DNA of 64,000 nt from an uncultured Clostridia bacterium. Its GTDB lineage: Bacteria > Bacillota > Clostridia > Saccharofermentanales > Saccharofermentanaceae. Below, piece by piece: positions 986 through 19,297 of the stretch. Where the stretch lies: assembly GCA_947304405.1 (NCBI GenBank), contig CAMZBB010000003.1, positions 836 through 64,835 of the forward strand, in the 5' to 3' direction. The translations under genes and the position numbers were made by a program. The notes under the pieces were generated by a model. It was not told the DNA's origin, made no database searches, and was given only the letters and a program-made list of their open reading frames with translations. Numbering within the stretch: position 1 is the first letter of the stretch; each line of letters opens with the position of its first letter.

Positions 986-1002
986 GCTTTCTGCTCCTTT
1001 TG

Positions 1003-2748: not shown

Positions 2749-2865
2749 AACTTTCACCTGTATGATACAAGGGCCGCCGACTACTTACCCTAATTATATC
2801 GGAAAGAATATTAACGAGATTTCATTGCTGTTAAGAAACAATAAAGTAATTTGAAAATTATTGTC

Positions 2866-3942
2866 TCAAAGTTGAACGGGACGCTCAATGATCCCGCCGC
2901 CCATTACGTGACCTGATTCATCGTAGAAAACCGCAGACTGTCCGGGCGATACGCCCTTAACTGCTTCGTCCAGTCTGACACTCACAAGTCCGTCAGACAT
3001 GACTTCGATCGTTGCCGGACGCTCTGTCTGGTGATATCTGGCCTTGGCGAGACAGCGCATCTTCACACCTTCGGAGGGCGTCGGGATACTCTGGAAATTA
3101 ACGTCCCTGCATAAGAACGTGCCGCACATCAGAGAATCTTCGGTTCCAAGCACGACTGTATTGTTTATGGGGTCGATCATTGTGACAAACGCAGGGTAGC
3201 CCAAAGCAATGCCCAGACCTTTTCTCTGACCGACCGTGTACTGATGGATCCCCTTGTGCCTGCCCAAGACATTGCCTTCTTCGTCAACGAAATTACCTTC
3301 GCCGGGCAAAACCTTGTCAGTATGCTCACTAATGAAATCAGTGTATCTGCCTTCGGTTACGAAGCAGATCTCTTGAGATTCTTCTTTATGTGCGCAGGGA
3401 AGACCTGCGTCTTCAGCTATCTTGCGCACCTCATCCTTGGTGTACTGACCCAAAGGCATCAGCGTTCTCGAGAGTTGCTCCTGGGTAAGCTTATAGAGCA
3501 TGTACGTCTGGTCTTTGCTGATATGGGAAGCTTTGCGGACGGCATATCTTCCGTTTTCGAGTTTATCTATGTAAGCGTAATGGCCCGTTGCTACATAGTC
3601 AGCCCCGAAGATGTCTGCCAGCTCGATCATCTTGGCCCATTTGACATAGCGGTTGCACTCTATGCACGGGTTGGGCGTCTGCCCCTCAAGATATGCGTTA
3701 ACAAAAGGATCAACGACATTTTCTTTGAACAGGGAAGTGCAGTTATGCGGATGGTATTTGATATCCAGGAGATTACAGATGTGCCTGGCTTCATCGATCT
3801 CACAGCATCTGCTGTCTTCTTCGCCGTCAGAACCCCATACGCGGAGAGTCACGCCCATGACCTCATAGCCCTGTTTCTTCAGCAGATATGCTGCAACAGC
3901 GCTGTCGACTCCTCCGGACATACCGACGATCACTTTAGCCAC
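2866..3942 (-). CDS. mnmA: tRNA 2-thiouridine(34) synthase (tRNA-specific 2-thiouridylase)
   Basis: 358 aa with N-terminal PP-loop VGMSGGVDSAVAAYLLK, conserved Cys residues and end-to-end MnmA-like sequence. GTG start. Confidence 0.93.
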   Translation of the reverse strand: MAKVIVGMSGGVDSAVAAYLLKKQGYEVMGVTLRVWGSDGEEDSRCCEIDEARHICNLLDIKYHPHNCTSLFKENVVDPFVNAYLEGQTPNPCIECNRYVKWAKMIELADIFGADYVATGHYAYIDKLENGRYAVRKASHISKDQTYMLYKLTQEQLSRTLMPLGQYTKDEVRKIAEDAGLPCAHKEESQEICFVTEGRYTDFISEHTDKVLPGEGNFVDEEGNVLGRHKGIHQYTVGQRKGLGIALGYPAFVTMIDPINNTVVLGTEDSLMCGTFLCRDVNFQSIPTPSEGVKMRCLAKARYHQTERPATIEVMSDGLVSVRLDEAVKGVSPGQSAVFYDESGHVMGGGIIERPVQL

Positions 3943-4002
3943 GAGATTACCGCCTTACGTTTTTTCGCATGTTATTGTTTCACATTTGGCAGGAAAATTA
4001 AA

Positions 4003-4298
4003 GGTGGTGTTGCTAAAGTGACGATGCCAAGGCCAAGTTGCTCATTTGTAGGAGTGTACATACGAAAACCCGATTATTTATGCTTTCGTATGTACGTTTG
4101 GACTGTTTTTTCGTAATTCCAACAGATATGTACATACGAAAACGCATTATTCTTCAAAATCGTATGTACTCAACCGGATTTTATGATGATTTTTGACGAA
4201 AACATACATACGAAAACGGGTGTTTTTCTATTTTCGTATGTACAAGTGATAGTTTAAAGAGAATTGTCCCGCAAGTGAAAGGATTCACTGGCGGGACA
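4003..4298 (-). repeat. hairpin-array element A (terminal motif, 3 x 74-bp hairpin units, terminator hairpin); inverted copy of element B
   Basis: Terminal motif GGTGGTGTTGCTAAAGTGACGATGCC at 4003-4028. Arms GTACATACGAAAA/TTTTCGTATGTAC at 4056-4095, 4130-4169 and 4204-4243 (period 74 bp). TGTCCCGC...GCGGGACA at 4265-4298 acts as the minus-strand terminator of CDS 4321-5208. Confidence 0.9.
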
Positions 4299-4320
4299 GA
4301 TAATTTCAAACCGGTTATGC

Positions 4321-5208
4321 TTATTTCTTCATGACAGGGAGCCAGATGGCGCTGTGATAGTCCTTGTCTGTAGGCATTGCCTTGCAGTCGTACCATTCGG
4401 CGGTGGCATTGCCGGAAAGCTCATAATCGGGATTGCCGGGAAGCCACTCAGTGAAGATTTTAGTGTTTACGGCCTGGAGAGCTCCGGGGCAAGGTCCGTA
4501 GATGTCAAAGACTGCCCAGTCGCCGTCAGCGAACTCGTAGATCTCCATTCCCTCAGGGATCTCGCCGCCCATATACTTGCCGGCGATCATGTACTTGAAC
4601 TTGGTGCCGCCGATGTCATCGATGCAGATGCCGAACTCACCGATGTTGTTGTCTGCAATTGCCTTTTCAAGAACGTTAGCGGGTTCTTTGCCTGCCCAGA
4701 CATTATTGGCATACTTCTCGCTGATCTCAGTCCAGAACTTCGGGATCTCTGCATAAGAGGTTTCCGAGTCGAAGAACCTCTGAAAGCCTATTACCTTAAA
4801 GTTTTTCATTGGTGTGATCTTGTAATCCATGTTGTTTCCTCCTTGAACGGTTAAGTTGATCTTTATCGGAAGGAAAGGCTTGAACGGAGTACTGTTTCTG
4901 ACCTGTGAAGGCGTTACTCCGTGAAAACGCGAAAAGGCTTTGGTAAAACTCTCGGGTGTCTCATAGCAATAGCGGTAGGCGATGACGATCACCATATCTT
5001 CCGTGTTGACCAGATCGAGCGCCGCCTGGTACAGTCTTCTGTTGCGGATATACTCTCCGACGGTGTAACCCGTCATGAGCGAGAAGCCGCGCTGCAGAAA
5101 GATGGGAGAGATATAAACCTTGCCCGCGACATCCTGTACACTGATGTCTTCTTCAAGATTGTTCTCGATAAAGTCTATCGCTGCTCTGATTCCCGTGAGC
5201 CATTCCAT
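4321..5208 (-). CDS. AraC-family transcriptional regulator with C-terminal GyrI-like effector-binding domain
   Basis: N-terminal AraC HTH (ISVQDVAGKVYISPIFLQRGF...YIRNRRL). The C-terminal ~150 aa resemble GyrI/Rob-type small-molecule binding domains. GGAAGGAG RBS. Confidence 0.8.
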   Translation of the reverse strand: MEWLTGIRAAIDFIENNLEEDISVQDVAGKVYISPIFLQRGFSLMTGYTVGEYIRNRRLYQAALDLVNTEDMVIVIAYRYCYETPESFTKAFSRFHGVTPSQVRNSTPFKPFLPIKINLTVQGGNNMDYKITPMKNFKVIGFQRFFDSETSYAEIPKFWTEISEKYANNVWAGKEPANVLEKAIADNNIGEFGICIDDIGGTKFKYMIAGKYMGGEIPEGMEIYEFADGDWAVFDIYGPCPGALQAVNTKIFTEWLPGNPDYELSGNATAEWYDCKAMPTDKDYHSAIWLPVMKK

Positions 5209-5382
5209 CTCGTGTTCTCCTTCCTTGATGATGTCAGTATAACTTCAGGGAGAATCCCGTTCCTGTCATTTTCGAAACTGATCTGTCCATTTGTAAATCA
5301 TCTATATTCTAATGCCTGCCGCCACGTCTGTCTCGGGTAATTTGTTGTAACGGTTCAAGCGTATTTACGATAGAATATCCCT

Positions 5383-6627
5383 ATGAGTATGAGAGTAGGG
5401 ATAATCGGCGGCGGTGCAGCGGGCCTTTATGCGGCCTGCCAGTTAAAGCGCCTTAAAGAAGACAGCGATGTTGAAGTTACGCTTATCGACAGAAATCCCG
5501 TACCCGGAAAGAAACTGATACTTACCGGACACGGGCGCTGCAATATCACCAACCGCAAAGACGCTTCACAGCTTAAGAAGGGTTTTCACGAAGCAGAGAA
5601 ATTCATATATCCGGCTCTTATGGAATTCGGATCTGAAGATACCATGGCTTTTGCCGAGAACGAACTCAGAATTAAGCTCAAGGAAGAAGAAAACAACAGG
5701 ATATTTCCAAAATGTGACAGCGCGATCGTCGTCAGGGATACCTTAGTTCAGTATATTTCTGACAGTACTGAAATTTTGCGGGAGACCAAGGTCACTAAGA
5801 TCAATAAGTCAGAAGACTTTGAAGTAATAACTGATAAAGGAACATACCATTTCGATCAGATCATCCTTTCGTGCGGCGGAAGTTCATTTGCGAAAACAGG
5901 TTCCACCGGTGATTCATATAAGTTCGCAAAAAGCTTAGGCCATACGGTAAACCCGCCCAAAGCAGCGCTCGCTCCTGTGAAAGCAGATGAGTTTTTCTGC
6001 GGCATCTGCAGAAAGTTAAGCGGTGTCTCTTTGAATGCCATGGTGTCAGTTTTTATAGAAAACAAGAAGACTGCGTCTTATGAAGGCGACGTTCTTTTCG
6101 CCGACTTCGGACTTACGGGTCCTGCGGTGATGGAGATCTCCAGAGAGATACCGTTAGATGTCGTAGAAAAGAAAGCATATCTTGAATTGGATATTGTTCC
6201 ATCAATGAACGATGAAGCATTTGACCGTGAACTGCAGGAACTGATAAGCGCACATGCAGACACTAAGATAACAACGCTTCTTTCGAGGTTTGTGCCGGCA
6301 TCAGTTGCAGCGGAAATAGCAGGGCAGGCCGGCACTGCCGATATGTATGCGCAGGGTTTTGCAAAGGAAAAGCGTAAGACCATATGCCGGCTGATGAAGC
6401 ATCTGCATATCGGTCTTTATAATGCTCCTGAGATCGATAAAGCATACGTCACAAGAGGCGGCGTCGTATTAAGCGAAGTAGACCGCAAGACTATGCAGTC
6501 CAAGATAGTTCCGGGTCTTTATATCCTCGGCGAAGCATTGGACATCGACGGCATAAGCGGAGGCTATAACCTTCAGGCATGCATGAGCGAAGCTTATCTT
6601 GCAGCCAAGGATATCCTTAAGAAGTAG
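5383..6627 (+). CDS. NAD(P)/FAD-dependent oxidoreductase, HI0933/BaiN-like flavoprotein family
   Basis: N-terminal Rossmann motif IIGGGAAGLYAA and GKKLILTGHGRCNITN, characteristic of the HI0933-like family. 414 aa. Confidence 0.8.
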   Translation: MSMRVGIIGGGAAGLYAACQLKRLKEDSDVEVTLIDRNPVPGKKLILTGHGRCNITNRKDASQLKKGFHEAEKFIYPALMEFGSEDTMAFAENELRIKLKEEENNRIFPKCDSAIVVRDTLVQYISDSTEILRETKVTKINKSEDFEVITDKGTYHFDQIILSCGGSSFAKTGSTGDSYKFAKSLGHTVNPPKAALAPVKADEFFCGICRKLSGVSLNAMVSVFIENKKTASYEGDVLFADFGLTGPAVMEISREIPLDVVEKKAYLELDIVPSMNDEAFDRELQELISAHADTKITTLLSRFVPASVAAEIAGQAGTADMYAQGFAKEKRKTICRLMKHLHIGLYNAPEIDKAYVTRGGVVLSEVDRKTMQSKIVPGLYILGEALDIDGISGGYNLQACMSEAYLAAKDILKK

Positions 6628-8109
6628 TCAGATAATCTCGATCTTAAAGCACAAAGGCTTATCAGTTTTGGGGACGCTATCTGTAACTATATTGAGGCCG
6701 CTGCCGTCACGTTCACTTGTTACGACATTAATATCACCGAGAGCTTCAACCTTGCCTGTTACAAGATCGAATTCGCCTTTGATCTTTAACGAACTGATGC
6801 GGAATTCATTTGAATCGGGATGCATACAGAATGCGTAAAGATATCCGTTCTTGTATGTGAATCGGTAGTCCTTCGAAGTGAACTCTTTTTCATCATTATC
6901 TTTGAAAGAACCTTCAACGTTGTTGGTATCACCCTCGCCGAATACTTTCCACGGAGTAGTGCCGTAAATGGCTTCTCCGTTATCCTTCATCCAACCGCCG
7001 ATCTCTTCTAATACAGATGTCTCTTCATCAGTGATGGTACCGTCAGGCTTGGGGCCGACATTGAGCAGGAGCATTCCGTTCTTGCTGACGATATCTACGA
7101 GGTCGCAGATTATCTGTCTTGCGGGTTTGAACTCATTGTCCTTGGTATATCCCCAGGACTTCTTCCCGATAGCGGTGTCGGTCTGCCAGGGAAGAGGATT
7201 GATGCCGGTAAGAGCTCCGCGCTCGACATCGTAAGTTGCGACTGTCGGAGGAAAGGCATTGTGCTTGAAATTTATGGTAACTTCCTTGCCCCATTCTTCA
7301 GCGCGGTTGTAGTAATAAGCGCAGACTTTCTTAAGGTAAGGCTTGAAAGCAGCATTATGTATCCATGAATCGAAATAGAGGACAGATGGCTTAAGCCTGT
7401 CAATGAGTTCGCATGTGCGTACCAGCCAGTCAGTGAGAAATTCTTCATCAGGCTGGGCAGCAAATATGTCGTTTATGGTCGCGAAAACTGCAACGTCTGA
7501 AAGCTCCGGCGACAGATGGGCAGGACCGTAGAAATCACTGTATTCTTCATCGTTGACGTCACTGTCTATGGAACGTCCCATGTTCATGAAGAAATAGTGT
7601 TCGGCCCTGTGTGAAGACGCGCAGAAGGCAAGACCTTTGTCTTCGCATGCACGCTTGATCTCCAGACAGATGTCTTTGCAGGGTCCCATCTTCGCTGCAT
7701 TCCAGCGGTTTAATTCCGTATCGTACATCGCAAATCCGTCGTGGTGTTCCGCTACGGGCATTATGTATTTTGCGCCTGCTCTCTTGAAAAGATCTACCCA
7801 CTGATCAGCATCGAAATTATCACCCTTGAACATGGGGATGAAATCTTTGTATCCGAATGTTTTGGGATCACCGAAATTCTTCTTGTGGAATTCGTATTCG
7901 TGTGATGCTCTGTTATACATCCATCTCGGATACCATTCGCAGGCATATGCAGGAACACTGTAGATGCCCCAGTGAATGAATATTCCGAACTTTGCCTGAT
8001 AGTACCAGTCCGGTATCTTGTGTCCGGACAGGGAAGACCAGTCGGCTTTATATTTACCGCCGTCTATAGTTTTATCTATCAGCTTTAAGTATTCGGATAC
8101 AGTCATCAT
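6628..8109 (-). CDS. alpha-L-fucosidase (GH29)
   Basis: PDWYYQAKFGIFIHWGIYSVPAY...EWYPRWMY and HHDGFAMYDT motifs typical of GH29, plus a C-terminal beta-sandwich-like tail. The start overlaps the upstream GNAT stop (ATGATGA). Confidence 0.88.
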   Translation of the reverse strand: MMTVSEYLKLIDKTIDGGKYKADWSSLSGHKIPDWYYQAKFGIFIHWGIYSVPAYACEWYPRWMYNRASHEYEFHKKNFGDPKTFGYKDFIPMFKGDNFDADQWVDLFKRAGAKYIMPVAEHHDGFAMYDTELNRWNAAKMGPCKDICLEIKRACEDKGLAFCASSHRAEHYFFMNMGRSIDSDVNDEEYSDFYGPAHLSPELSDVAVFATINDIFAAQPDEEFLTDWLVRTCELIDRLKPSVLYFDSWIHNAAFKPYLKKVCAYYYNRAEEWGKEVTINFKHNAFPPTVATYDVERGALTGINPLPWQTDTAIGKKSWGYTKDNEFKPARQIICDLVDIVSKNGMLLLNVGPKPDGTITDEETSVLEEIGGWMKDNGEAIYGTTPWKVFGEGDTNNVEGSFKDNDEKEFTSKDYRFTYKNGYLYAFCMHPDSNEFRISSLKIKGEFDLVTGKVEALGDINVVTSERDGSGLNIVTDSVPKTDKPLCFKIEII

Positions 8110-8519
8110 AAGATTACCTTTTTAAAGAAGTATTTTGAAAGCCTGGGGTCGTTGTCCTCACGTACAAACTCAAGTTCATATCCTTGTTTCTTATAGAACC
8201 CCGGAGCCTGGAAACCGTACGTGGTGAGAGTTATCTTGGCATAACCGCAGCCTTTGTATGCATCTTCAACGGCAGCAACAAGTTTGCTTCCGATACCGCT
8301 CTTTCTGCATTCATGATTAACGATAAGATCGACTATGTGAACTTCGTTATAAAGTGCGCGTCCTTTTATCACACCGAGGATCTTCCCGTCTTCTTCGGCG
8401 ATAAAACAAAACTCGTCGTAGTTAAGCGTTACTTCTTTTTCAATGGCATAAGAAGAGAATTCTTTGTTGATGAATTCTCCGAGCGAATCGCTTATTTCTT
8501 CTATACGTTTGATATCCAT
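8106..8519 (-). CDS. GNAT-family N-acetyltransferase
   Basis: Acetyl-CoA binding core HECRKSGIGSKLV. ATG at 8519 is preceded by GAGGA (the track start at 8531 is a GTG inside the upstream stop region). Confidence 0.8.
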   Translation of the reverse strand: MDIKRIEEISDSLGEFINKEFSSYAIEKEVTLNYDEFCFIAEEDGKILGVIKGRALYNEVHIVDLIVNHECRKSGIGSKLVAAVEDAYKGCGYAKITLTTYGFQAPGFYKKQGYELEFVREDNDPRLSKYFFKKVIL

Positions 8520-8527
8520 CTTGATCC

Positions 8528-8980
8528 TCACAATTTGTACTGCATGAAGTTTCCGTTATGAACAAAACCATACGAAGTATAGAGTTTTACGCCCATGTCT
8601 GATGCGGTGATCTGAACTGCTCCGCATCCGTATTCTCTTGCTTCGCTTACAACACGGTTTAAGAGCTCTTTGGCAATGCCCATGCGCCTGTAACCGGGAT
8701 CTGTATACATGCTCGAAAGGAGACCGATCCTGCCTGTGGGACAGCTGAAATACGGGGGCTTTTCAACAAAAGACATACCGCTGGTTCCGATTATCTTTTT
8801 GCCGTCCAAAGCAAGCCATGAGACAAATGTTCCGTCGGCCAGATGGCGGTTATAGAAATCCTTCAGTGCCGGTACGAGATCTATGTCCTCTGTTGCGCCT
8901 TCTTCTCTCAATTGAGTGATGCGCATGCTGATGAATGTATCAAGATCAGATGTTGTAAGTTTTCTGTATGTGATTACCAT
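8528..8980 (-). CDS. GNAT-family N-acetyltransferase
   Basis: YRRMGIAKELL acetyl-CoA motif. The start is uncertain (8980 preferred from typical GNAT length; the track gives 9037, which would overlap the antiporter stop). Confidence 0.7.
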   Translation of the reverse strand: MVITYRKLTTSDLDTFISMRITQLREEGATEDIDLVPALKDFYNRHLADGTFVSWLALDGKKIIGTSGMSFVEKPPYFSCPTGRIGLLSSMYTDPGYRRMGIAKELLNRVVSEAREYGCGAVQITASDMGVKLYTSYGFVHNGNFMQYKL

Positions 8981-9008
8981 GCTTTTGATCCATCTCTCCA
9001 TTGTGAAT

Positions 9009-10262
9009 TTATAACTCGTCAAATACTTTAGCGTCAATCTTCTGCTGAAGCCTTAAGTAATAGCCTGCGATCATTGAAGAAAGCATAGTTGTAAGTATCA
9101 GTACCGTAAAGAATTCCAGGCTGATGATGTTATACGAATAAGCGACGGTTGCGAGAACGATGCCCGGTCCGCCTCTTGCATTCATAGTTATGGCGAAGTT
9201 TAGCTTTGTGCTCATCTTCAGTCCTGAGAACAAAAGCAGTACCCATGTGCCAATGAATTCGAGTCCGAATGCGATCGCAAAGAACAACAGGAATCTTAAA
9301 GGCGAAAAATCATGCACGACATTGAGCTGGATCCCGACAAGGGCAAAGTAGATCGGGATGAAGAACGAGAATGCAATGTTCTCAAGTGACTTCATACGCG
9401 TCTTTACAACTTCCTCAGTTCCGAAGACAGCCTTGATCAGATATCCCACGACAAAAGCCGAATACATGATGTTGATACCGAGCATGTAAAGAAGTCCGCA
9501 CGTGAGAAGAAGAGCTGAGAAACTCAAAGAATAAAAGGTCACGGGCTTCCACTGGTTCTTTATCTGTTTGATGAATTTCGAAATCAGATATATTGCGATG
9601 AAGATGCCTATGGTTACTGCAACGATGATTATCATCTCAACCAGCTTGATCTCGCCTGATTGTGCGATCTTTGTTGCAACGTTTAGGAGTATCCAAAGGA
9701 CCAGATCCTGAAATGTCGATACTGTAAGTACCGTGTTCGAAAAAGCCGTGTTCATTATCCCCATATCAAAGAAGATCTTTGAGATAACGGGAATCGAAGT
9801 GATGGCAACACCGATCGCGAAAACAAGACAGTAAGCAAATTCGTTGTTGATGCTTCCGATGAAGTGTTCCCTGAATACGCCGAAAAAGGGAATGCTTCCG
9901 GCCATCGGAAGGACCGTGGCACCGATGAATACGAGACTTATGGTCTTTGCATTCGATTTATCGACTTTGATGTCCGTGTTGTAACCCGACAGGAACATCA
10001 GGAAGATAAGGCCAAGTTGATAGAAGATATTCAGAACTTTTCCTTCTTCGGGGTAGGCAAAGAATATCTGCTGAGACAAAGCAGGGAGGATCAGGAACAG
10101 GCAGCTTCCGCCAAGTATCATGCCGCCCAATATCTCACCAACGACACGCGGCCCCTTGATCTTCTCAATGAGCGTGCCGAACACGAACGCAAAGAAAAGA
10201 AGCAGTGCCAGTGCTATCAGGGTTATGATTATCTCTTTTTCGGAAAGGGTCGCGAGTCTCAT
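9009..10262 (-). CDS. cation:proton antiporter (CPA2 / Na+-H+ exchanger family)
   Basis: 417 aa with about 12 hydrophobic spans. The N-terminal VVGEILGGMILGGS motif is typical of the Kef/CPA2 family. Confidence 0.75.
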   Translation of the reverse strand: MRLATLSEKEIIITLIALALLLFFAFVFGTLIEKIKGPRVVGEILGGMILGGSCLFLILPALSQQIFFAYPEEGKVLNIFYQLGLIFLMFLSGYNTDIKVDKSNAKTISLVFIGATVLPMAGSIPFFGVFREHFIGSINNEFAYCLVFAIGVAITSIPVISKIFFDMGIMNTAFSNTVLTVSTFQDLVLWILLNVATKIAQSGEIKLVEMIIIVAVTIGIFIAIYLISKFIKQIKNQWKPVTFYSLSFSALLLTCGLLYMLGINIMYSAFVVGYLIKAVFGTEEVVKTRMKSLENIAFSFFIPIYFALVGIQLNVVHDFSPLRFLLFFAIAFGLEFIGTWVLLLFSGLKMSTKLNFAITMNARGGPGIVLATVAYSYNIISLEFFTVLILTTMLSSMIAGYYLRLQQKIDAKVFDEL

Positions 10263-10263
10263 G

Positions 10264-11319
10264 TCAATGCAGTATTGCTTTCAACTTTTCATCGCTTGTG
10301 AGAAGAGCTTTTGCCAGTTCTCTGTACTTTTCCTCGTGAAGATACGTGTGACGGTGAGGCTTCATAGAAGGCGCCAGGTCAATGGCCTTTGCGTAATCGT
10401 CTGTCTTCAGGTCAAGCGTTGCACAGTAATCCCAGAAACCGGTCTTGGTGAATATCGTATCGACTCTCTGCCAGCGGTGATCTAATATCTTGCACATGAT
10501 GTAAGTCGCGATACCAACCTGCACACCGTGAAGCTGGGGTCTTTCGAGGAAAGAATCAAGTGCGTGCGAGATGAGGTGTTCGCTGCCGCTCGTAGGAGCA
10601 GAATTGCCTGCTATCTCATTGGCGACTCCGCTCATCGCAAGCGAGTCCAGGAGTTCTTTAAGGAAGAGGTTTTCATCAATTGATGCAAAAGGTGTCCTGA
10701 CAAATGAATTGACTGCCTTCTTGGCGATCATGAAAGCGAAATCATTTACTTCTCCGTAGCCTAAGTCTTCCTCGTGCTGCCAGTCGTATGTCGACTGGAT
10801 CTTAGCGACCATGTCGCCGACACCGGAGTGAAGGAATCTGACAGGTGCGCTCTTGATGACGTCGGTATCAACAAGGATGCCGTAAGCCATTTTCGCGGGA
10901 AGCGATTTCCTGTGGCCGTCAACGATCAGTGATGCCGTGGAACTTGAGAACCCGTCCGAAGAAGAACTCGTAGGCACGCTGATAAATGGTATGCGCAGGA
11001 TATAGCCGATATATTTAGCCGCATCTATGACTTTTCCGCCGCCCATGCCGATTATGGCTTGTGTCTTATTTGGAAGTTCGAAAGCGAGGTTCGTGATGTC
11101 CTTGAAATCCACTGTGTCCATCTCCTGGCTGTGAAGGACTTTAACGCCGGCCTCGTCAAATGACTTGAATACGGTATCTCCGAACATCGCGATAAGACCG
11201 TTACCGAAAAGGATAACTACCTGCGTGAAGTCTTCGGCCTTGAGATAATCGCCGATGTGCGCGGTAACTCCTGCTTCGATCTTGAGTATAGGGGGGATCG
11301 AGATCTCGTCTTTAGGCAT
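10264..11319 (-). CDS. iron-containing alcohol dehydrogenase superfamily protein, sn-glycerol-1-phosphate dehydrogenase (AraM/EgsA)-like
   Basis: GMGGGKVIDAAKY nucleotide-binding motif and VPTSSSSDGFSSSTAS, resembling the PTxxSHDGIAS motif of G1P dehydrogenases. 351 aa. GAGAGGAA RBS. Confidence 0.6.
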   Translation of the reverse strand: MPKDEISIPPILKIEAGVTAHIGDYLKAEDFTQVVILFGNGLIAMFGDTVFKSFDEAGVKVLHSQEMDTVDFKDITNLAFELPNKTQAIIGMGGGKVIDAAKYIGYILRIPFISVPTSSSSDGFSSSTASLIVDGHRKSLPAKMAYGILVDTDVIKSAPVRFLHSGVGDMVAKIQSTYDWQHEEDLGYGEVNDFAFMIAKKAVNSFVRTPFASIDENLFLKELLDSLAMSGVANEIAGNSAPTSGSEHLISHALDSFLERPQLHGVQVGIATYIMCKILDHRWQRVDTIFTKTGFWDYCATLDLKTDDYAKAIDLAPSMKPHRHTYLHEEKYRELAKALLTSDEKLKAILH

Positions 11320-11340
11320 AATGAGTTCCTCTCTTTCTTG

Positions 11341-11997
11341 TTATCCGATAACTTCGGGGACGACCTTTGTAAGTTCGTCAAAACTGTTGATATAAGGGAC
11401 TTCGGCGTCGATCGTTCCGAATCCGTATCTTGCGTGGATGAAAGGGAAACCTGCTTTTACGGTCGAGTTGTAATCGCTTTGAATATCACCGACATAGCAG
11501 GCGGCGGAAAGGCCGTTGCGCTCTGCTATCAGCTTTATGTTCTCATCCTTTTGCAGGAAGTTGTTGCCGTAGCATTCGATGTCTTCTACGAGATCTTCAG
11601 GCTTGCCGTAAGCTATGTTATAAAACTCAAGGAAAGACTCGATGTAACCTGCCTGGCAGTTGCTGACGATATAGATGTGATAACCCATTTCTTTGAGCTT
11701 TGCCCATGTCTCGCAGATACCGTCGTAAAGGATGCCGCCGTGACCCCTTAAATATTCGTTTTCGTAATTCTCGCAGGAGAAACGCAGCGCATCGCGCGCC
11801 TCGCCTTTTTCGGCATAGTAGAAAAGGTTATCTGCGATCTCGTCCATGGGCTTTCCCATGTTGCGCTGGATATCTTCGCGGGTTACCGTTTTATCCGTGT
11901 ATCCTGCCTCATGGACCTTAACCGTCCACGCCTTGGCAACATTCTCGGAAGAATCCCAGACTGTGCCGTCCATATCGAAGATTATGCCTTTTTTCAT
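11341..11997 (-). CDS. HAD-family hydrolase (phosphatase)
   Basis: Motif I IIFDMDGTVWDS. Length of 218 aa and a cap region typical of HAD-IA. GGGAGG RBS. Confidence 0.8.
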   Translation of the reverse strand: MKKGIIFDMDGTVWDSSENVAKAWTVKVHEAGYTDKTVTREDIQRNMGKPMDEIADNLFYYAEKGEARDALRFSCENYENEYLRGHGGILYDGICETWAKLKEMGYHIYIVSNCQAGYIESFLEFYNIAYGKPEDLVEDIECYGNNFLQKDENIKLIAERNGLSAACYVGDIQSDYNSTVKAGFPFIHARYGFGTIDAEVPYINSFDELTKVVPEVIG

Positions 11998-12101
11998 GTG
12001 TTGAGCCTCCCGTACTGCTTCCTAATATATCACATAAAGAAAGTCATTATTTTAGGAGCTTTACTGTATAATTAAGGCAAGTTTTCTTCATAGGGGTTTA
12101 A

Positions 12102-13508
12102 ATGCTTGGATTTATAAGGGAATTTCAGACCGATTTCATGCTCTTTTTCCAGGGCATCTGTCTCATCATCGCTTTTTTGACACTGTTTACCAAAAGCCTT
12201 TCCCCAAGGAGAAGAAACGCGATCATACTGCTTGAAGTGTATGCGGCGGTATATCTGGCCTCAAGCCGTTTCTACTATCTGTATAAGGACTATACCGACA
12301 CGAATTTCTGGCCGCTTGTCAGGACCGCAAAGTTCCTGGATTACTTTTTCTGCCTCGCGATACTTCTTTGCTTCAACCTTTATCTCAAGGACCTCTTTAA
12401 GAATGAAGCGGGCCTTAAGAAAAACCCGAAACTGATATACGTCGGAGACGCCATCCTGGTTGCAGGCATCGTGATGCTCATAGTATCAGGCTCAAAGGGC
12501 TTCTATTACTACTGGGATGCCAACAATGTCTATACCCACGGTCCGGGGTTCTTCGTCCAGTATTTCTTCGCGGTTCCGCCTATGCTCATCGCAATGATCT
12601 GCGTATTGCGTCACTACAGGAAGTTCCCGCGTTCCATCAGGATACCAATAATGCTGTTTTTGCTGATCCCGGTCATAATGGCCGTGCTGCAGCTTGTAAC
12701 CAAGGGCATCGCTTTCGCAGTTCTCTCTACCGCCGGCATGGACATTGTATTGTATGTCTTTACGATCCTCGACATGAACAAGAAGGTCGAAAGAGCGCAC
12801 AGGCTCGAGATCGAGATGATGGCCAAGTACCAGAAAGAACTTGAGGAGACTGTTGCGTTAAGGACGGCGGAGCTCCGCGATGCCAACGAAAAGGTCGAGC
12901 ATCTGCTCTTGAACATCCTGCCTGAGAACGTCGCACGTGAGCTTACCGAAGACCCCGATAAGACCATTTCTCAGCGCTATCCCAATGCGACCGTTCTCTT
13001 TACCGATGTCGTTGATTTCACAAAGATAAGCGATTCCATGAGCGCCGAAGAGACGGTAAAGATGCTGAATAACCTGATGACTCTGTTCGATGAACGTTCG
13101 AGGAAAGAAGGCATCGAGAAGATCAAGACCATAGGCGATGCCTACATGGCTGCGACCGGTCTGACTGAAGACATGGACAATGACGGAGCTGAGAAGATGA
13201 TCATGTTCGCCAAGGGTCTTCTTAGTGATATCGAAGAATTCAACAAGACCTCATCAGTTAAGCTTAAGATTCGCATAGGCATCAATTCGGGCGAACTGGT
13301 TGCGGGCGTCATAGGAAAGACGAAGTTCATTTACGACATATGGGGCGATACCGTTAATGTTGCAAGCCGTATGGAGAGCAGTGGAACGGCAATGAAGATC
13401 CATGTTTCCGAAGCGACTTATGAACAGACGAAAGACCTTTTCGAGTATTCAGACAAAGCGAAGATGGATATCAAGGGAAAAGGCAGCATGATCACCTATT
13501 ATCTCTGA
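12102..13508 (+). CDS. membrane-bound class III adenylate/guanylate cyclase
   Basis: Six hydrophobic spans and a coiled-coil linker, then ATVLFTDVVDFTKIS...IGDAYMAATGL...IGINSGELVAGVIG...YDIWGDTVNVASRMES. Confidence 0.88.
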   Translation: MLGFIREFQTDFMLFFQGICLIIAFLTLFTKSLSPRRRNAIILLEVYAAVYLASSRFYYLYKDYTDTNFWPLVRTAKFLDYFFCLAILLCFNLYLKDLFKNEAGLKKNPKLIYVGDAILVAGIVMLIVSGSKGFYYYWDANNVYTHGPGFFVQYFFAVPPMLIAMICVLRHYRKFPRSIRIPIMLFLLIPVIMAVLQLVTKGIAFAVLSTAGMDIVLYVFTILDMNKKVERAHRLEIEMMAKYQKELEETVALRTAELRDANEKVEHLLLNILPENVARELTEDPDKTISQRYPNATVLFTDVVDFTKISDSMSAEETVKMLNNLMTLFDERSRKEGIEKIKTIGDAYMAATGLTEDMDNDGAEKMIMFAKGLLSDIEEFNKTSSVKLKIRIGINSGELVAGVIGKTKFIYDIWGDTVNVASRMESSGTAMKIHVSEATYEQTKDLFEYSDKAKMDIKGKGSMITYYL

Positions 13509-14438
13509 TCACTCGAGCAAGTATTCCGTTACTTGATCTATTACCGCCATATTCTGTTCGGTGTAGGGCACGAATATAATGCCGGTATGCCCGTCTCTGC
13601 CATAGAGGAGAAGGCGGTGTTCTGTCCCTTGGGATTCCAGCACCTTGTCGAAATGGAAAGTCATCTTGCGCAGAACGTCCTTGGGATTCGTGATCAGGAT
13701 GGTCTTTGGGAGCTTAGCAAGGCTTGCGTTCCTTTCAAATGCCAGGTAACCGTATCTCTTATCGTTTTTATAGCCTTTGGGAAAACACATCTTTCTCATG
13801 CCCCAATAAGCAATGCTGCTCTTATAAAAATGCAACAGGCCGCAATCTGTGAGAACACCCTTGTAGCTGTAATCTCTGTCCTTTATGCCGTAATCCCTGC
13901 GCATATCCGGGTCTACGCACAACAGGGCCTCGCTGACCGCAAGTACTCCGCCTGATGAGTGCCCCGCGATAAAGAGCCGTTCTATGTCCGCTTCATAGTC
14001 GCCTGAGTTGTCCAAAACGTATCTTACGCCTTTATCGATGTCTTCTATCTGGTCGAAAACGGTCCATTCGGGATAAGCAAGCCTGACGTTCAGCTCAAAG
14101 ACCACAAAGCCCGCCTGAGCCATGTAGTAGCCGAACATTCGGTTCATCGCTTTGTCCTCTGATACGAAGCCGCCGCCGTGTATATCTATGAGTATGGGCT
14201 TTTTTGTGCCGTCCTTACGGAAAAACACATCCATTTTGTGCCCGGACAGGCCGTCTCCCGCATAATCCGTGTCTGAGATCTCGGTGATATTACCGGGCAG
14301 CCGGGAAGGATCGAGCTTGGCAACGTCGACCTTAAGAGCTTTTTCGCCGATCTTCTTGACTATCCGGTTGATCATGATCAGATTATACAACAAGAATGTC
14401 TGAGCAGGGCGGTGTAACATTGTTACAAAAGCGCTCAA
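13509..14438 (-). CDS. alpha/beta hydrolase (esterase/lipase-like)
   Basis: HGGGF oxyanion motif and GHSSGG nucleophile elbow. The start codon is uncertain (TTG 14438, ATG 14420 or ATG 14375; none has a clear RBS). Confidence 0.7.
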   Translation of the reverse strand: MSAFVTMLHRPAQTFLLYNLIMINRIVKKIGEKALKVDVAKLDPSRLPGNITEISDTDYAGDGLSGHKMDVFFRKDGTKKPILIDIHGGGFVSEDKAMNRMFGYYMAQAGFVVFELNVRLAYPEWTVFDQIEDIDKGVRYVLDNSGDYEADIERLFIAGHSSGGVLAVSEALLCVDPDMRRDYGIKDRDYSYKGVLTDCGLLHFYKSSIAYWGMRKMCFPKGYKNDKRYGYLAFERNASLAKLPKTILITNPKDVLRKMTFHFDKVLESQGTEHRLLLYGRDGHTGIIFVPYTEQNMAVIDQVTEYLLE

Positions 14439-14509
14439 AACCGCATAAATCCAATGTTTGTGGCTTTAAGCGTTCATAAAAGAGTTACAGTCTGAACACA
14501 GATGGTTTT

Positions 14510-14538
14510 TTGACTTTGAAATTCAATACGCATATTAT
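14510..14538 (+). promoter_or_regulatory. putative sigma-70-type promoter for the AMP-ligase gene
   Basis: TTGACT (14510-14515), 17-nt spacer, TATTAT (14533-14538), about 45 nt upstream of the ATG at 14583. Confidence 0.45.
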
Positions 14539-14582
14539 AATTTATAAGAAAAGTGTAAGGAACACAAGTTTCAAGGCCGGAA

Positions 14583-16316
14583 ATGAAAGAATTCAACGAA
14601 GAGAAAGTATTACAAGACATTGATTGTAATCTGTATGATTTCATAACTTCCCATACTCCATATAAGGACACGGACGAAGTCTTTTCTTACGCCGGTATCT
14701 CATACGATTACAAGCGTTTCCGTGACCTTGTCAGCAAACTCATCAGGATCCTGACGTCTGTTCCTTATCTGAAGACAGGGGATAAGGTCGTTATCGCCCT
14801 AGTTAACTGTCCTGAAGCTATAGCGCTGGTCTATGCCTGCAATTACGTATCCCTGACTCCCGTTATGGTCGATGTCAGGTTCTCACCCATGGAATATCAG
14901 AGAATCATTGCCGAGGCTGATGCCAAACTGGCTTTCCTTGCCGATATCTGCTCGAGAGATCTGAAATTGATATGCAGCGCTCCCTGTCTCAAGGATCTAT
15001 ACATAGTTTCTCCGATCCAGAGCGCAAATTTCCTCAAGCGCTTCTTCTGGGGGATCGCATGTCTGATAATGGGCTTCAACTATCTGTTCTCATCCATCGG
15101 TCAGTCTAAGGTTTCTTTTTGGAAGAAGTTCCTCTCAAAAGACCCCGGCGGGGAAGTCAGTCAAGGATTTACAAAGGGCGATGCCGGGACTCCGATCATA
15201 TTTGCCACGAGCGGCTCTACCGGTCAGCGCAAATTCGTCATTCAGACGCCCAGGGCGCTGAATCTGAACATATGCTACAACGAATACTATTTCGACATGA
15301 ATGACCCGGAGATCAGGACGGAGATCACTTTCCTGCCTATCTTTGCATGTGCGGGATTTGCGAGCAGCATCCACTTCCCGCTGTTCTACGGCAAGAAGAT
15401 CTACATCCATCAGATCTATGATTTCCGCAAGATAGACAAGGCAATGCTCATGTTCAGACCAAATATAATCATCGGATCTGTGGGCATGTGGGAGCATTTC
15501 CTTCATTCCGAGCACATAAACGGCACGGATCTGTCGTTTTTGCGCCTTTGTGTATTCAGCGGTGAGAAATGCGAGCCTGAGCGCATCGAGAACATGAACC
15601 GGATATTATCTGAACACGGATGCAAGACCAAACTCATGCAGGCATATGGAATGACCGAGCTGACAGTCGTTGCCATGCATTCGCCTGAATTCTATGATCC
15701 CGCTTCCGCCGGCAAGCCTTTCCCGATGGTAGACGTTCGCATCGTCAAGGAGGGAACACATGAAGAACTGCCGCAAGGTGAAGCGGGTGAAATCTGTGTT
15801 CATTCACTTGGAATGATGAAGGGCTATTGGCTTAATGATGAGGCCACGACAAAGATGATGCAGGTGCATTCAAACGGGAAGTCTTATATCCATACCGGCG
15901 ATATTGGGTACATCGACGATAAAGGATGTCTTTACATCAACGGCCGCATCAAGAACATGCATGTTTCCATCAGCGGAACAAAGATATTCACGCCTGCCAT
16001 CGATGAGGAGATCTTGAAGATGGACGGCGTCATAAGGTGTGCAAGCGTTGTCTGCAAAGTCCCTCAGAGAAATGACATTTCCGGAATTCTTCTTTTCGTT
16101 GAGCTCGAAAAGGGTTCGCCTCTGAATAAACACACTGACAAGAAGATCAAAGCACATTGTTACGATAATCTGCCGATGTTTTTGCGTCCTGACAAAGTGA
16201 TCGTATTAAGCAAGTTTCCTCTCACGTCGACCGGAAAGACCGACTATCAGGAACTGCAGAGACAGGCTGATTCCTATATGCTCAGACACAAGGCAACTGT
16301 AATCAACGTAAAATAA
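14583..16316 (+). CDS. AMP-dependent synthetase/ligase (acyl-CoA synthetase-like)
   Basis: AMP-binding signature FATSGSTGQRKFV and GDIGYIDDKGCLYINGRIKN. 577 aa. Confidence 0.82.
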   Translation: MKEFNEEKVLQDIDCNLYDFITSHTPYKDTDEVFSYAGISYDYKRFRDLVSKLIRILTSVPYLKTGDKVVIALVNCPEAIALVYACNYVSLTPVMVDVRFSPMEYQRIIAEADAKLAFLADICSRDLKLICSAPCLKDLYIVSPIQSANFLKRFFWGIACLIMGFNYLFSSIGQSKVSFWKKFLSKDPGGEVSQGFTKGDAGTPIIFATSGSTGQRKFVIQTPRALNLNICYNEYYFDMNDPEIRTEITFLPIFACAGFASSIHFPLFYGKKIYIHQIYDFRKIDKAMLMFRPNIIIGSVGMWEHFLHSEHINGTDLSFLRLCVFSGEKCEPERIENMNRILSEHGCKTKLMQAYGMTELTVVAMHSPEFYDPASAGKPFPMVDVRIVKEGTHEELPQGEAGEICVHSLGMMKGYWLNDEATTKMMQVHSNGKSYIHTGDIGYIDDKGCLYINGRIKNMHVSISGTKIFTPAIDEEILKMDGVIRCASVVCKVPQRNDISGILLFVELEKGSPLNKHTDKKIKAHCYDNLPMFLRPDKVIVLSKFPLTSTGKTDYQELQRQADSYMLRHKATVINVK

Positions 16317-16464
16317 GCATGTCCGGAAAAGTGCGGAATTGTGGCAATTTTGAGATATAACAGGATTGTCACATAAAAATCCTAAATCTATTATATAATT
16401 ATGGCGCAAGGGAAAGAATAAGCATTATTCTGCAAAGCATTAAAGGCTTTTTGGAGGAGAAAAG

Positions 16465-17343
16465 ATGGGAAAATTCAAGACGGTAATAAGCTTTACGCTG
16501 GTAATGGCTATGCTTGCCGGTGTCGCTGGTTGTAACCAGAAAGTGGATTTCAATTCCACTACGGCAACTATAACGACTACGACAACAACTACCGAGGAAA
16601 CGTCTGAGACGAAGCCTTCCGAGACTGAGACATCTGAAACTGAGACAGAGACATCCGAGACATCATCTGAGACTTCCGAGACAAAGGAATCTTCAGAAAC
16701 ATCAGAGAGCAAAGAGACCTCGGCAACCAGTGAGAGCACCTCCGAGTCCTCGGATGAGACCACAAAGGCTGATTCCGGTCTGAACACTGTTTCTGTTTAC
16801 AACGCATACAAGAGATCTTTCAAGGTCGGCAAGAAGTCAGTTACGACCCGTTACCCCAAGATCATGATCAAGGGCGTCAACACAAACAAGGTCAACAAAG
16901 AGATCGCTGACAAGTTTAAGCCCATCGCAAAGAAGAATAAGAGCAGAGTAACTTACAGCTACTATGTCCGTAAGTATCTCATCTCCGTATTGGTAACGGT
17001 TGAGCTCGAGGCAGGCAACAGCGAGTTTAAGAACTTCTACGTTTACAATGTCTCCAGGATCAACGGCAAGAAGCTGACACGTGAACAGGTTCTCAAGTCA
17101 CTCGGACTCAAGAGCAGCACATTTAACTCAAAGGTAAAGGCCGGCATCCAGAAGATGTGGAAGACAGATTACAAGAAGGATACTAGCGCGGCCAAGAAGA
17201 AGATGGAAGCAAATTCCCTCAAGACATCCAAGCTCAACACTGCAATGCCTTTCATGAACGCTAACGGCAAGATTTCCTATCTTGTACGTCAGATCGAGGT
17301 TCCGGGCCAGATGTCGCATATCGACCTCAAGGGAACAATCTGA
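16465..17343 (+). CDS. lipoprotein with Thr/Ser/Glu-rich linker, function unknown
   Basis: Signal peptide with lipobox LAGVAGC, followed by about 90 aa of T/S/E low complexity (ETSETKPSETETSETETETSE...). GGAGGAG RBS. Confidence 0.7.
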   Translation: MGKFKTVISFTLVMAMLAGVAGCNQKVDFNSTTATITTTTTTTEETSETKPSETETSETETETSETSSETSETKESSETSESKETSATSESTSESSDETTKADSGLNTVSVYNAYKRSFKVGKKSVTTRYPKIMIKGVNTNKVNKEIADKFKPIAKKNKSRVTYSYYVRKYLISVLVTVELEAGNSEFKNFYVYNVSRINGKKLTREQVLKSLGLKSSTFNSKVKAGIQKMWKTDYKKDTSAAKKKMEANSLKTSKLNTAMPFMNANGKISYLVRQIEVPGQMSHIDLKGTI

Positions 17344-17364
17344 TAGATCTGAAACTTAATGAGC

Positions 17365-17660
17365 TGTCCCGCTAGTAAATTTGTTTACTTGCGGGACAAT
17401 TCTTTTTAAACTATCGCATGTACATACGAAAATGGAAAAACAGTCGTTTTTGTATGTACATTTCCGTAAAAAAACATCTTAAATTCTAGTTGCGTACATG
17501 CGATTTTGAAGAATAATGCGTTTTCGTATGTACATATCTGTTGGAATTACGAAAAAACAGTCCAAACGTACATACGAAAGCATAAATAATCGGGTTTTCG
17601 TATGTACACTCCTACAAATGAGCAACTTGGCCTTGGCATCGTCACTTTTGTAACACTACC
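17365..17660 (+). repeat. hairpin-array element B (terminator hairpin, 3 x 74-bp hairpin units, terminal motif); inverted copy of element A
   Basis: TGTCCCGC...GCGGGACA at 17365-17398, followed by ATTCTTTTT. Hairpin units at 17420-17459, 17494-17533 and 17568-17608 (period 74 bp). Terminal motif GGCATCGTCACTTTTGTAACACTACC at 17635-17660. Confidence 0.9.
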
Positions 17661-19203
17661 TTTTTTCTGTCAGCTGTTCGTAGGTAATGCCGTACTTTTC
17701 GGCTATGTCCCTGGCATAAGAACTTGAATCAGGTTCTGCTCTTTTTAGAAGGAACGTGTTTTTCTCATCCTTACGTTCCATAACAAGACTCGTGATCTTG
17801 CCTTGGCCATCCCAATTGTTCATCTCCGGAATGGATTTAGCAAGATCATGCATGTGCGTGTTGAAGATGATATAAGCGCCTTTCTCTTTGAGCACGCGGA
17901 TCAGATCCTTCGAAAGATATAGTCCGTCTGAGGACGATGTTGTTGAGAACGTCTCATTAAACAGCATCAGAGTATCCTGATCTGCATTTTTCACAAGACT
18001 CCTGATCCTAACAGCTTCCTCGCCAAGCCTTCCGTAATTTATTGTAAGGTTCTCATCGATGGGGAAGTGAGTAAGGATGTTGCCAAACGGAAGTCCCCTG
18101 CATGATCCTGCGGTTACGAACATACCGAGAGAAGACATTACCGAGATCAGTCCCAGAGCCTGTTCCATTATGGTCTTTCCGCCGCGGTTCGGACCCGTAA
18201 GAATGAAGATTCTCTCGTCAGGCGTAAATGTGAAGTCGTTTTTGACGATGTTATCCTCACCTTTAAAAGCAAGCCTTATGTTATAGAAACTCTTCATTTC
18301 AAATTTTGAGTCACGAACTGCCGTTATCTCGGGAAAAGATATCTCGTAACCGCTTTTTTTGAGTTTGCGAGCCAGGCCTGCACTTCTTATATAGAATGTC
18401 AGTCCTTCATACATTTCAACAAGGAAACTGCTGTCGTAATTGAAGTATTTTGTTAGTGTTCTTTTGACCTCAAAGAAGTGGGCTTTGAGGTGCTTTTCCA
18501 TCTTTGGCGCTATTGCCGCAAGAAGCGGATCTTCATATCTGACACGTCTGCCGGGCGTTGACAGCTTGGTAGCTGCAGCAATGTCCATTATCGTGTATTT
18601 GGATCTGAGACCGTGAGGCACAAATTCAATGGCTGAAACTTTTTCTATGTCAAAATCAGGAGTGAAATTGACGCCGATCACTGCTGCTCTTACGTCTGAC
18701 AGGTCATCGTGCATCAGGCGGATGTCATCTTTTGCACGGCTGAACTTTTCATCTTTTAATATGATTTCGAGACAGGTTCTGAGAGAAATCAGTCCTTCAG
18801 ATGAAATGCTGTATTTTTGCAGTTCGTTGTAAAGGTTTTCGACTGCATCAACGTAGACTGTAAGTTCTCTTAATGTCTGTAGAAGAGTGTAGAGCGATGT
18901 ATCTTTCTCGTATGTGGCTTTACGTATTCCGCCGAAGAGTTTTAACGTCTTTATCTGATCCAGTATAGGTTTCAGGGAAGAACAAAGTGCTTCGTTTTCG
19001 ACAAAATCTTTCAATATGTCCTGTCTGAAGATCATATCATTAGGATCTTCAGGTATCGCTGTGACGATCTTTTTTATGAAGGCGCGCTCATCGGAATCTG
19101 TGCCCAAATGATTTATGACCTCGCAAAGCGCGATATCTTTTACGGTTTCTTCTGGCAGCTTGATAGACTTTTTAGAAGAGTCTTTCGTAAACAGAACATC
19201 CAT
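17656..19203 (-). CDS. MutS domain V-type ATPase (MutS-related protein, no Smr or mismatch-binding domain recognised)
   Basis: Walker A GPNRGGKT, Walker B region LMLFNETFSTTS, and THMHDLA. ATG at 19203 follows GGGAGGA (the track's TTG at 19236 is less likely). Confidence 0.7.
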   Translation of the reverse strand: MDVLFTKDSSKKSIKLPEETVKDIALCEVINHLGTDSDERAFIKKIVTAIPEDPNDMIFRQDILKDFVENEALCSSLKPILDQIKTLKLFGGIRKATYEKDTSLYTLLQTLRELTVYVDAVENLYNELQKYSISSEGLISLRTCLEIILKDEKFSRAKDDIRLMHDDLSDVRAAVIGVNFTPDFDIEKVSAIEFVPHGLRSKYTIMDIAAATKLSTPGRRVRYEDPLLAAIAPKMEKHLKAHFFEVKRTLTKYFNYDSSFLVEMYEGLTFYIRSAGLARKLKKSGYEISFPEITAVRDSKFEMKSFYNIRLAFKGEDNIVKNDFTFTPDERIFILTGPNRGGKTIMEQALGLISVMSSLGMFVTAGSCRGLPFGNILTHFPIDENLTINYGRLGEEAVRIRSLVKNADQDTLMLFNETFSTTSSSDGLYLSKDLIRVLKEKGAYIIFNTHMHDLAKSIPEMNNWDGQGKITSLVMERKDEKNTFLLKRAEPDSSSYARDIAEKYGITYEQLTEKR

Positions 19204-19297
19204 GATGTATGTGATCCTCCCAACGACACTATACAAACAACAAATGATCGGTTATATAATAATCTTACGATTTATATAAAGATATTGCGGAGTTGTT

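Follow-up and report, generated by a model that had tools for sequence, protein, structure and literature searches.

A 64,000-nucleotide stretch from an uncultured Clostridia bacterium (contig CAMZBB010000003.1; hereafter the window, i.e. the whole stretch analysed) carries two inverted repeats with 148 bp of perfect identity on either side of a 13-kb, 12-gene block, and this arrangement raises the question of whether the block is an invertible or mobile unit, or whether the repeats are there for reasons of their own. We find that the two arms are members of a dispersed hairpin-array repeat family, and because this family has four arrays in the window alone, their bracketing of the block is incidental. 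The explanation we consider likely is that the arms are two partly homogenised copies of a repeat that resembles repetitive extragenic palindromic (REP) sequences, bacterial interspersed mosaic elements (BIMEs) and BOX elements, with inversion of the block a possible by-product that is not observed.

Self-comparison of the window reproduces the 148/148 identity that an initial sequence-only reading had reported between 4015–4162 and the reverse complement of 17501–17648, and extends the repeat to 306 ungapped nucleotides (4000–4305 vs 17358–17663), of which 277 are identical (91%). The main features are as follows.

4000–4305, + strand: IR-A, a complete hairpin-array element from head to tail, between the mnmA start and the AraC/GyrI stop
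4015–4162, no strand: the 148-bp core, equal to the reverse complement of 17501–17648
17358–17663, − strand: IR-B, the second copy, oriented opposite to IR-A; lies between the lipoprotein and MutS-like genes, which are convergent
4321–17343, no strand: the enclosed 12-gene block, ancestral chromosome and not a mobile island, collinear in relatives

Identity is 12/15 in the outer 15 nt, 148/148 in the core and 117/143 in the inner 143 nt, while similarity ends outside the arms, where the next 40 nt match at 8/40 and 14/40 positions. The sequence-only reading had described substitutions and small indels in the inner and outer parts; the former are present, the latter are absent within 4000–4305. 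The mosaic (0/148 vs 26/143 differences) is far outside chance—i.e. when 29 mismatches are placed randomly over 306 positions, a 148-nt identical run appears in 0 of 500,000 permutations (analytic bound 3.6e-8). Because independent metagenome assemblies reproduce both copies, along with the same 26 inner differences, an assembly artefact is excluded for the repeat.

Read from the outside inward, each arm starts with a head module, continues with three 13-bp-stem hairpins spaced every 74 nt, and ends in a GC-rich tail hairpin that resembles a terminator.

4000–4028, + strand: head module, AAAGGTGGTGTTGCTAAAGTGACGATGCC, common to IR-B, the array at 59 kb and a sister-species array (L041); junction point of cassette exchange
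4056–4095, + strand: hairpin 1 of IR-A, arms listed as GTACATACGAAA with a 16-nt loop
4130–4169, + strand: hairpin 2 of IR-A
4204–4243, + strand: hairpin 3 of IR-A
4266–4297, − strand: tail hairpin of IR-A, GTCCCGC..GCGGGAC, probable (predicted) intrinsic terminator of the AraC/GyrI gene
17366–17397, + strand: tail hairpin of IR-B, followed by AATTCTTTTT, probable (predicted) terminator of the lipoprotein gene
17420–17459, − strand: hairpin 3 of IR-B
17494–17533, − strand: hairpin 2 of IR-B
17568–17607, − strand: hairpin 1 of IR-B

The hairpin unit is 40 nt long with a 12–13-bp stem, units are spaced at 40 + 34 nt, and in IR-A and IR-B the 13-nt arm GTACATACGAAAA and its complement enclose a loop of 13–14 nt. 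Predicted folding energies range from −11.5 to −15 kcal/mol for single hairpins and reach −28.7 and −22.2 kcal/mol for the tail hairpins on the AraC/GyrI and lipoprotein sides (z = −8.0 and −4.6, respectively), with a z of about −5.5 for the whole arm. Within the diverged inner part, 5 of 59 stem positions differ compared with 21 of 84 elsewhere (P = 0.015), and two of these five stem changes form the single compensatory pair (4277/4286) by which the IR-A and IR-B tail hairpins differ. As stems have changed less than loops and spacers, and given the compensatory pair in the tail, the pattern argues for constraint acting on the hairpins.

A covariance model of the hairpin unit combined with a hairpin scan recovers exactly 12 hairpins in the window, i.e. 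four arrays of three, and nothing else. The two arrays beyond IR-A and IR-B are the following.

24990–25174, + strand: third array, three hairpins with stems GTACCTATAAGAA, 73-nt period, without head module; between convergent DUF3592 and prephenate dehydratase genes
59438–59689, − strand: fourth array, three hairpins (59438–59625) with stems GCACTTACGAAAT, 74-nt period, and a head module at 59665–59689; between convergent amine oxidase and Zn-ribbon genes

Modules are combined differently among arrays: IR-A and IR-B combine head, three units and tail, the array at 59 kb has head and units, and the one at 25 kb has units and tail; the head 12-mer AAGTGACGATGC occurs in the window only in three of the arrays. 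All four have three units at a period of 73–74 nt, no array length differences are found in seven strain contigs, and their density is 4 per 64 kb, or about 1 per 16 kb. Every array is intergenic and next to a gene 3′ end; three separate convergent genes, and IR-A has a gene end on one side and the mnmA leader on the other. The array at 25 kb is also flanked by two separate terminator-like hairpins (24931–24966 and about 25193–25228).

Across arrays, 7 of 13 stem pairs have changed on both sides and none on one side only, a covariation reached in 0 of 500 shuffles, and all these changes are Watson–Crick on both sides, without G-U intermediates. Loops and spacers show no detectable similarity within or between arrays (pairs are at the level of shuffled sequence), and their lengths are kept everywhere. 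With positional homology of spacers between arrays thus rejected, copying of the whole 300-nt element with slowly diverging spacers is supported for the IR-A/IR-B pair only.

This combination of folding and covariation could also be expected if the arrays were structured small-RNA genes or RNA modules of 3′ untranslated regions, the 148-bp identity being kept by selection on a duplicated RNA. Their strong predicted folding, compensatory stem changes and position at gene 3′ ends speak for such a role. However, the two-sided Watson–Crick changes without G-U intermediates fit palindromy at the DNA level equally well, loop and spacer sequences are unconstrained, and the presence of arrays varies between sister species (see below). 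Moreover, none of 4,227 Rfam models matches the window at gathering threshold, the arm itself giving only chance-level matches (E >= 1.3), so that membership in a known RNA family was rejected; a tRNA/tmRNA scan found none, and promoter and terminator consensus scans of the arms yield only chance-level matches, at relative positions that differ between the two copies. Overall, we regard an RNA origin of the identity as quite unlikely.

The fixed dimensions of the arrays suggest another function, namely phased sites for a DNA-binding or nucleoid-associated protein. Such cases exist, as BIME-2 binds gyrase and repetitive IHF-binding palindromic (RIP) elements bind integration host factor (IHF). 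The exact period of 73–74 bp (about 7 helical turns), the loop and spacer lengths held constant despite unrelated sequences, and the recurrence of an 11-nt arm in a distant genome (described below) would fit this model. Yet one genome here carries three different arm sequences in which both arms changed together, which a single sequence-specific binder would not tolerate, and no candidate protein was identified. We therefore consider phased binding sites improbable.

What, then, made the outer part of the two arms identical? A reciprocal crossover exchanges flanks without making sequences identical. Because such a crossover swaps flanks only, and the pattern is 0/148 vs 26/143 differences, a non-reciprocal event is needed, and non-reciprocal homologous exchange (gene conversion) over the outer arm best explains the mosaic. 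Specifically, the copies would first have diverged by ~18%, after which non-reciprocal homologous recombination would have made their outer 148 bp (head and hairpins 1 and 2) uniform, with either the other of the two copies or a third family member elsewhere in the genome as donor of the tract.

Additional contigs of the same species place this event in time. These were found using the MutS-like protein, with its start corrected to Met12 (an exact database match), and a 98%-identical member of the mnmA cluster (P0303); exact look-ups of mnmA with a V or M start, of AraC/GyrI and of the 100%-identical P0241 were not on record. A total of 13 contigs from independent assemblies were recovered, all collinear with the window and 97.7–100% identical to it. 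IR-B is spanned by two of them (L059 and L060) and IR-A by five (L064, L065, L067, L068 and L069), each of these five from a different assembly, with collinearity at 98.3–99.6% identity. IR-A is the same in five strains except at position 4300, while in two strains IR-B has two sites unlike those of the window, including one in the core (147/148); the 26 inner differences are fixed. Since the mosaic is common to all sampled strains, and a single-nucleotide polymorphism (SNP) lies in the core of two, homogenisation predates the sampled strain diversity, and it followed the split from the sister species. As such, the gene conversion proposed in the sequence-only reading is supported, but not as a very recent one.

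Perfect inverted homology of 148 bp is enough in principle for RecA-type recombination, given minimal homology lengths, and for this reason inversion of the block is possible. The block is thus a formal inversion substrate, as originally proposed, yet none of our comparisons supports an actual inversion, and no inverted arrangement is found in any assembly or relative. All 7 junction-spanning contigs (from five assemblies) have the window's orientation, including L059 and L064, which are parts of one 67-kb scaffold carrying both junctions, and no recombinant junction is present among the 13 same-species contigs. Synteny of mnmA and the MutS-like gene, proposed at the outset as a check on an invertible segment, likewise goes against it, with a single orientation in these 7 contigs and in all related species examined.

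It could still be argued that the block flips appreciably by RecA-dependent crossover in the core, as a population polymorphism of which gene conversion is the footprint. The perfect homology lies 13 kb apart, the converted tract shows that array sequences do enter homologous exchange, and the outward-facing predicted terminators at both ends would leave the junction genes intact. In addition, 6 of the 13 contigs end inside the core. These ends, however, sit where a two-copy repeat alone would stop each assembler—i.e. ~30 nt into the core for Logan contigs, which we take to be k = 31 assemblies, and 86 nt past a strain SNP for L061 (k87 according to its record name). Consensus contigs show the majority arrangement only, so low-frequency flipping would escape them; within that scope, 7 of 7 contigs are unflipped and the window's orientation is the ancestral one in every relative. 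Chromosomal inversions mediated by ribosomal operons (rrn), insertion sequences (IS) and long repeats are similar in having inverted homology on one replichore around a gene block, but here the homologous stretch is short, with 148 bp perfect and 306 bp at 91%, and no strain or relative is inverted; intra-replichore inversions that switch genes between leading and lagging strand are also generally selected against (PMC9297083). Inversion would move 12 genes between the two strands, leaving promoter–gene connections unchanged. Appreciable flipping therefore seems unlikely to us, and a RecA-type inversion, if it occurred, would be no regulated switch but a side effect that is neutral or mildly harmful.

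Domain annotation returns 12 genes in the block and confirms the domains that the sequence-only reading had named; the genes are AraC/GyrI, an HI0933 flavoprotein, GH29, two GNAT proteins, a Na/H exchanger, an iron-containing alcohol dehydrogenase (Fe-ADH), a HAD protein, a class III cyclase, an esterase, an AMP-ligase and a lipoprotein. Also in agreement with that reading, the two end genes, AraC/GyrI (4321–5208, −) and the lipoprotein gene (16465–17343, +), are transcribed outward, each toward a stable predicted arm hairpin (−28.7 and −22.2 kcal/mol). The genes outside the arms are as follows.

2866–3942, − strand: mnmA, left outer flank
17656–19203, − strand: MutS domain V protein, right outer flank, start at Met 19203, 515 aa

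In relatives with 78–85% protein identity, the gene order runs from MutS-like through esterase, HAD, Fe-ADH, Na/H exchanger, GNAT, GH29 and AraC/GyrI to mnmA, in the same relative orientation as in the window, and a search of their fetched loci with the hairpin unit model yields no member of the family. By its protein homologues, the window belongs to an uncultured Clostridiales lineage close to Saccharofermentans, and the database records of relatives (ENA; STEW19, XIEF21 and WILK20) point to rumen metagenomes. In an 85% relative (L042) the AraC/GyrI stop lies 100 bp from the mnmA start, and this spacer holds a small terminator and the conserved mnmA leader without an array. Similarly, at the site of the window's 25-kb array, L055 has a 66-nt spacer with a plain terminator. 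A different picture is seen in an 83% relative, where a spacer of ~320 nt downstream of prephenate dehydratase (L051:11970–12290; also L052 and L053) is rich in palindromes (TTTTGCCTAT.. and TCCGACTTTTC..). This spacer does not match the family model and was rejected as a family member; its palindromes may represent another, unrelated repeat in a comparable position.

Sister-species contigs, at 85–93% nucleotide identity to the window, reveal both empty and swapped sites. In one of these (L054), the MutS-like and lipoprotein genes are 31 bp apart and have a common bidirectional terminator without an array, and the window's element (17364–17660) stands in place of 25 nt of this terminator with no target-site duplication. 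In another (L041), an array of the 59-kb type sits upstream of mnmA; it is near-identical to the window's 59-kb array up to GCATCGTCA in the head, and onward to mnmA it is identical to the flank of IR-A. Because relatives keep gene order and orientation, several of them without repeats, the 13-kb block represents ancestral, syntenic chromosomal DNA, oriented as in the ancestor. The flanking arrays reached these sites in a lineage-specific manner or, at the mnmA site, by cassette replacement, with the head module as the exchange junction. We also observe that the empty site (L054:3254–3280, AAAGGGTGACGATTGA) and the window's head module (17630–17663, AAAAGTGACGATGCC) have an 8-nt sequence, GTGACGAT, common to target and element end, which could represent a target preference or microhomology.

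The arrival of IR-B has altered its neighbour. The outer end of this element provides the last codon and the TAG stop of the MutS-like gene, and the protein has 515 aa instead of the 518 of the sister species because the inserted array brings a new stop codon; the C-terminus reads ..TEKR in the window vs ..TEKKGDD in the sister species, each followed by the stop. The longest open reading frame (ORF) of this gene, 17656–19236 (−), begins at TTG, while the database protein begins at Met12 (19203).

These comparisons also bear on whether all 13.6 kb form a composite transposon or genomic island with the arms as its terminal inverted repeats. The 306-nt inverted repeats at both ends are what such a unit would have. 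Against this, the block is collinear with repeat-less relatives, including the AraC/GyrI–mnmA and MutS-like–lipoprotein adjacencies, its GC content does not differ from that of its flanks, no transposase is found in the window, and the array at the B site replaces 25 nt without target-site duplication. Membership in this class was accordingly rejected, and we see it as extremely improbable. The single arrays do not qualify as MITEs (miniature transposable elements with inverted repeats) either, as they lack terminal inverted repeats (the best local score of the head against the reverse-complemented tail is 6, as expected by chance) and the filled B site has no target-site duplication.

A programmed invertible element of the inverton or shufflon type would require a site-specific recombinase that recognises the repeated 13-mers. 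Each arm does offer several identical short inverted sites, and a distant genome has conserved the arm sequence. However, domains of serine or tyrosine recombinases or of transposases are absent from all ORFs of the 64 kb, arrays of identical build stand alone at 25 and 59 kb, and the enclosed genes are housekeeping genes that are syntenic without repeats in relatives. Because both end genes read outward, there is no promoter-in/promoter-out logic, and a single orientation occurs, both in the 7 of 7 contigs that span a junction and in every relative. We rejected membership on these grounds, and a programmed switch appears very improbable.

All of the roughly 55 ORFs in the window lack transposase, recombinase and Cas domains, and a heuristic tblastn search with an IS200 TnpA sequence has no match in 0.52 Mb of sequence. 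Blastn of the arm against plasmids and phages gives no match, scans of viral contigs return two isolated single-hairpin matches without head motif, which we took as chance, and scans of JGI metagenomes with the core 29-mer and with the head motif give zero matches. Word searches of the literature for earlier descriptions of such a repeat in Clostridia retrieved nothing relevant.

Among 185,579 species-representative genomes scanned for the IR-type hairpin, one metagenome-assembled genome (MAG), JAAYBI01, has many copies. This MAG is labelled Clostridiaceae bacterium AS06rmzACSIP_271, and its mnmA is 47% identical to that of the window. Its hairpin (L001–L040) is ATACATACGAAA-N15-17-TTTCGTATGTAT, i.e. 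the IR-A/IR-B arm, with a loop largely conserved in either orientation. The same 11-nt arm is found at >25 loci, either singly or in tandem arrays with a period of 75 or 86 nt, in both orientations and often at contig ends (e.g. L013:180–620, L027:4990–5300 and L025:6240–6620). Some copies adjoin a second hairpin type (TTACCGCCAAA..TTTGGCGGTAA) and odd GGTG/CCAC-rich tracts. A CRISPR array was rejected as an identity for the repeats of the window: spacing is regular, but loops differ, arrays have 3 units only, no cas domains occur in the window, and the "spacers" of JAAYBI01 are themselves repeated.

The repeat family is previously unannotated, but of a known general kind. Systems that pair REPINs (hairpins with two REP arms) with REP-associated tyrosine transposases (RAYTs), whose gene is typically flanked by the repeats, have been described mainly in Proteobacteria, and REP/BIME copies number tens to hundreds per genome. 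The arrays resemble the REP/BIME and REPIN clusters of Enterobacteria and Pseudomonas in that these are short extragenic hairpin palindromes occurring singly or in ordered tandem clusters, with a hairpin spacer less conserved than the arms, several sequence flavours per genome, an intergenic location that favours gene 3′ ends, and a presence that varies between close relatives (PMC3116915). With 40-nt units and 12–13-bp stems, the hairpins fall within the REP/BIME palindrome range (about 20–60 bp), and as in REPINs the arms are conserved while the loops within an array are unrelated. The distribution in JAAYBI01 (>25 loci, both orientations, singles and tandem arrays) is classically REP-like. 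Unlike REP/REPIN sequences, the arms here are 13-mers that are not themselves palindromic, arrays always have three hairpins and are bounded by head and tail modules, the host belongs to the Firmicutes, and no RAYT/Y1 transposase is found in the window ORFs or, by the same heuristic search with the TnpA query, in the 0.52 Mb.

The BOX elements of Streptococcus (boxA-boxB(n)-boxC) are another Firmicute intergenic composite with terminal modules around a tandem internal module, and their internal modules are predicted to fold as stem-loops largely independent of the ends (PMC3049150). Distinct 5′ and 3′ modules around a tandem array are likewise found here. However, the arrays have no sequence relation to BOX, their unit is 74 nt vs about 45 nt, their arms are array-specific, and they lack terminal inverted repeats and target-site duplications. 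In contrast to boxB, whose number varies between strains, the three units are fixed and invariant among 5–7 strains. BOX elements are often transcribed as 3′ adducts of operons (PMC3049150), and the 3′-end location and terminator-like tail of the arrays would fit, by analogy, how REP and BOX elements sit in transcripts (PMC3116915, PMC3049150).

Some observations weigh against our preferred explanation, that the arms are partly homogenised copies of a dispersed repeat. The evidence on copy number, tract donor and mobilising enzyme comes from 64 kb of genome only; the contigs represent the majority arrangement, and 6 of 13 are uninformative as they break in the core. Three regularities are, moreover, unexplained by a simple selfish or neutral repeat: arms are identical within an array and different between arrays, loop and spacer lengths are exactly kept though their sequences are unrelated, and the same 11-nt arm occurs in the >25-locus repeat of a distant MAG. 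An alternative, to which we give a small but real chance, is that three-hairpin arrays are a new class of cassette-like element, swapped or installed at the head core GTGACGATGC by a sequence-specific enzyme (HUH/RAYT-like or a recombinase) encoded elsewhere in the genome, with a templated process keeping the six arms of an array identical and the loop and spacer lengths fixed while their sequences are free. In that case, the inverted pair around the block would be a side effect of a mobility system, active in rumen Clostridiales and so far undescribed, that has relatives in other Firmicutes (JAAYBI01).

Under the dispersed-repeat explanation, recombination anchored in the head module, which is conserved, would probably let arrays spread and take one another's place; this is the least certain step. 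The arrays would probably persist as tolerated 3′-end hairpins, serving as putative terminators or as RNA-end protection between convergent genes.

Other features of the window stand apart from the arrays. GC skew is flat over 1–19000 (about +0.01), where genes lie mostly on the minus strand inside and outside the block, while from 19 kb on (to 31000) it is clearly positive and plus-strand genes predominate; the block shows no local skew reversal of its own. Two adjacent ORFs (621 and 613 aa; 26614–30317, +) have no Pfam match and are kept beside the prephenate dehydratase gene in L055 and L059. Further downstream, 31797–34524 (−) holds in a row a LarC-type nickel-insertion gene (PF01969), a LarB-type gene resembling aminoimidazole ribonucleotide (AIR) carboxylase (PF00731) and an unannotated 272-aa ORF; these genes may form a biosynthesis cluster for the lactate-racemase cofactor, nickel-pincer nucleotide (NPN).

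As an inversion candidate, the locus is of low relevance, given that the block is ordinary chromosome in its ancestral orientation and that flipping would rewire no promoter. Its interest lies in the repeats, which show regularities that call for an explanation: arms specific to each array, a 74-nt phasing held fixed while the sequence is free, and a head module that coincides with the exchange junction. The arrays have practical consequences as well, as they break short-read assemblies exactly at the conserved core and alter gene ends, e.g. through the stop codon of the MutS-like gene. Lastly, the empty, filled and swapped sites in sister lineages make the arrays a clean natural case of ectopic gene conversion and of cassette replacement among dispersed repeats.

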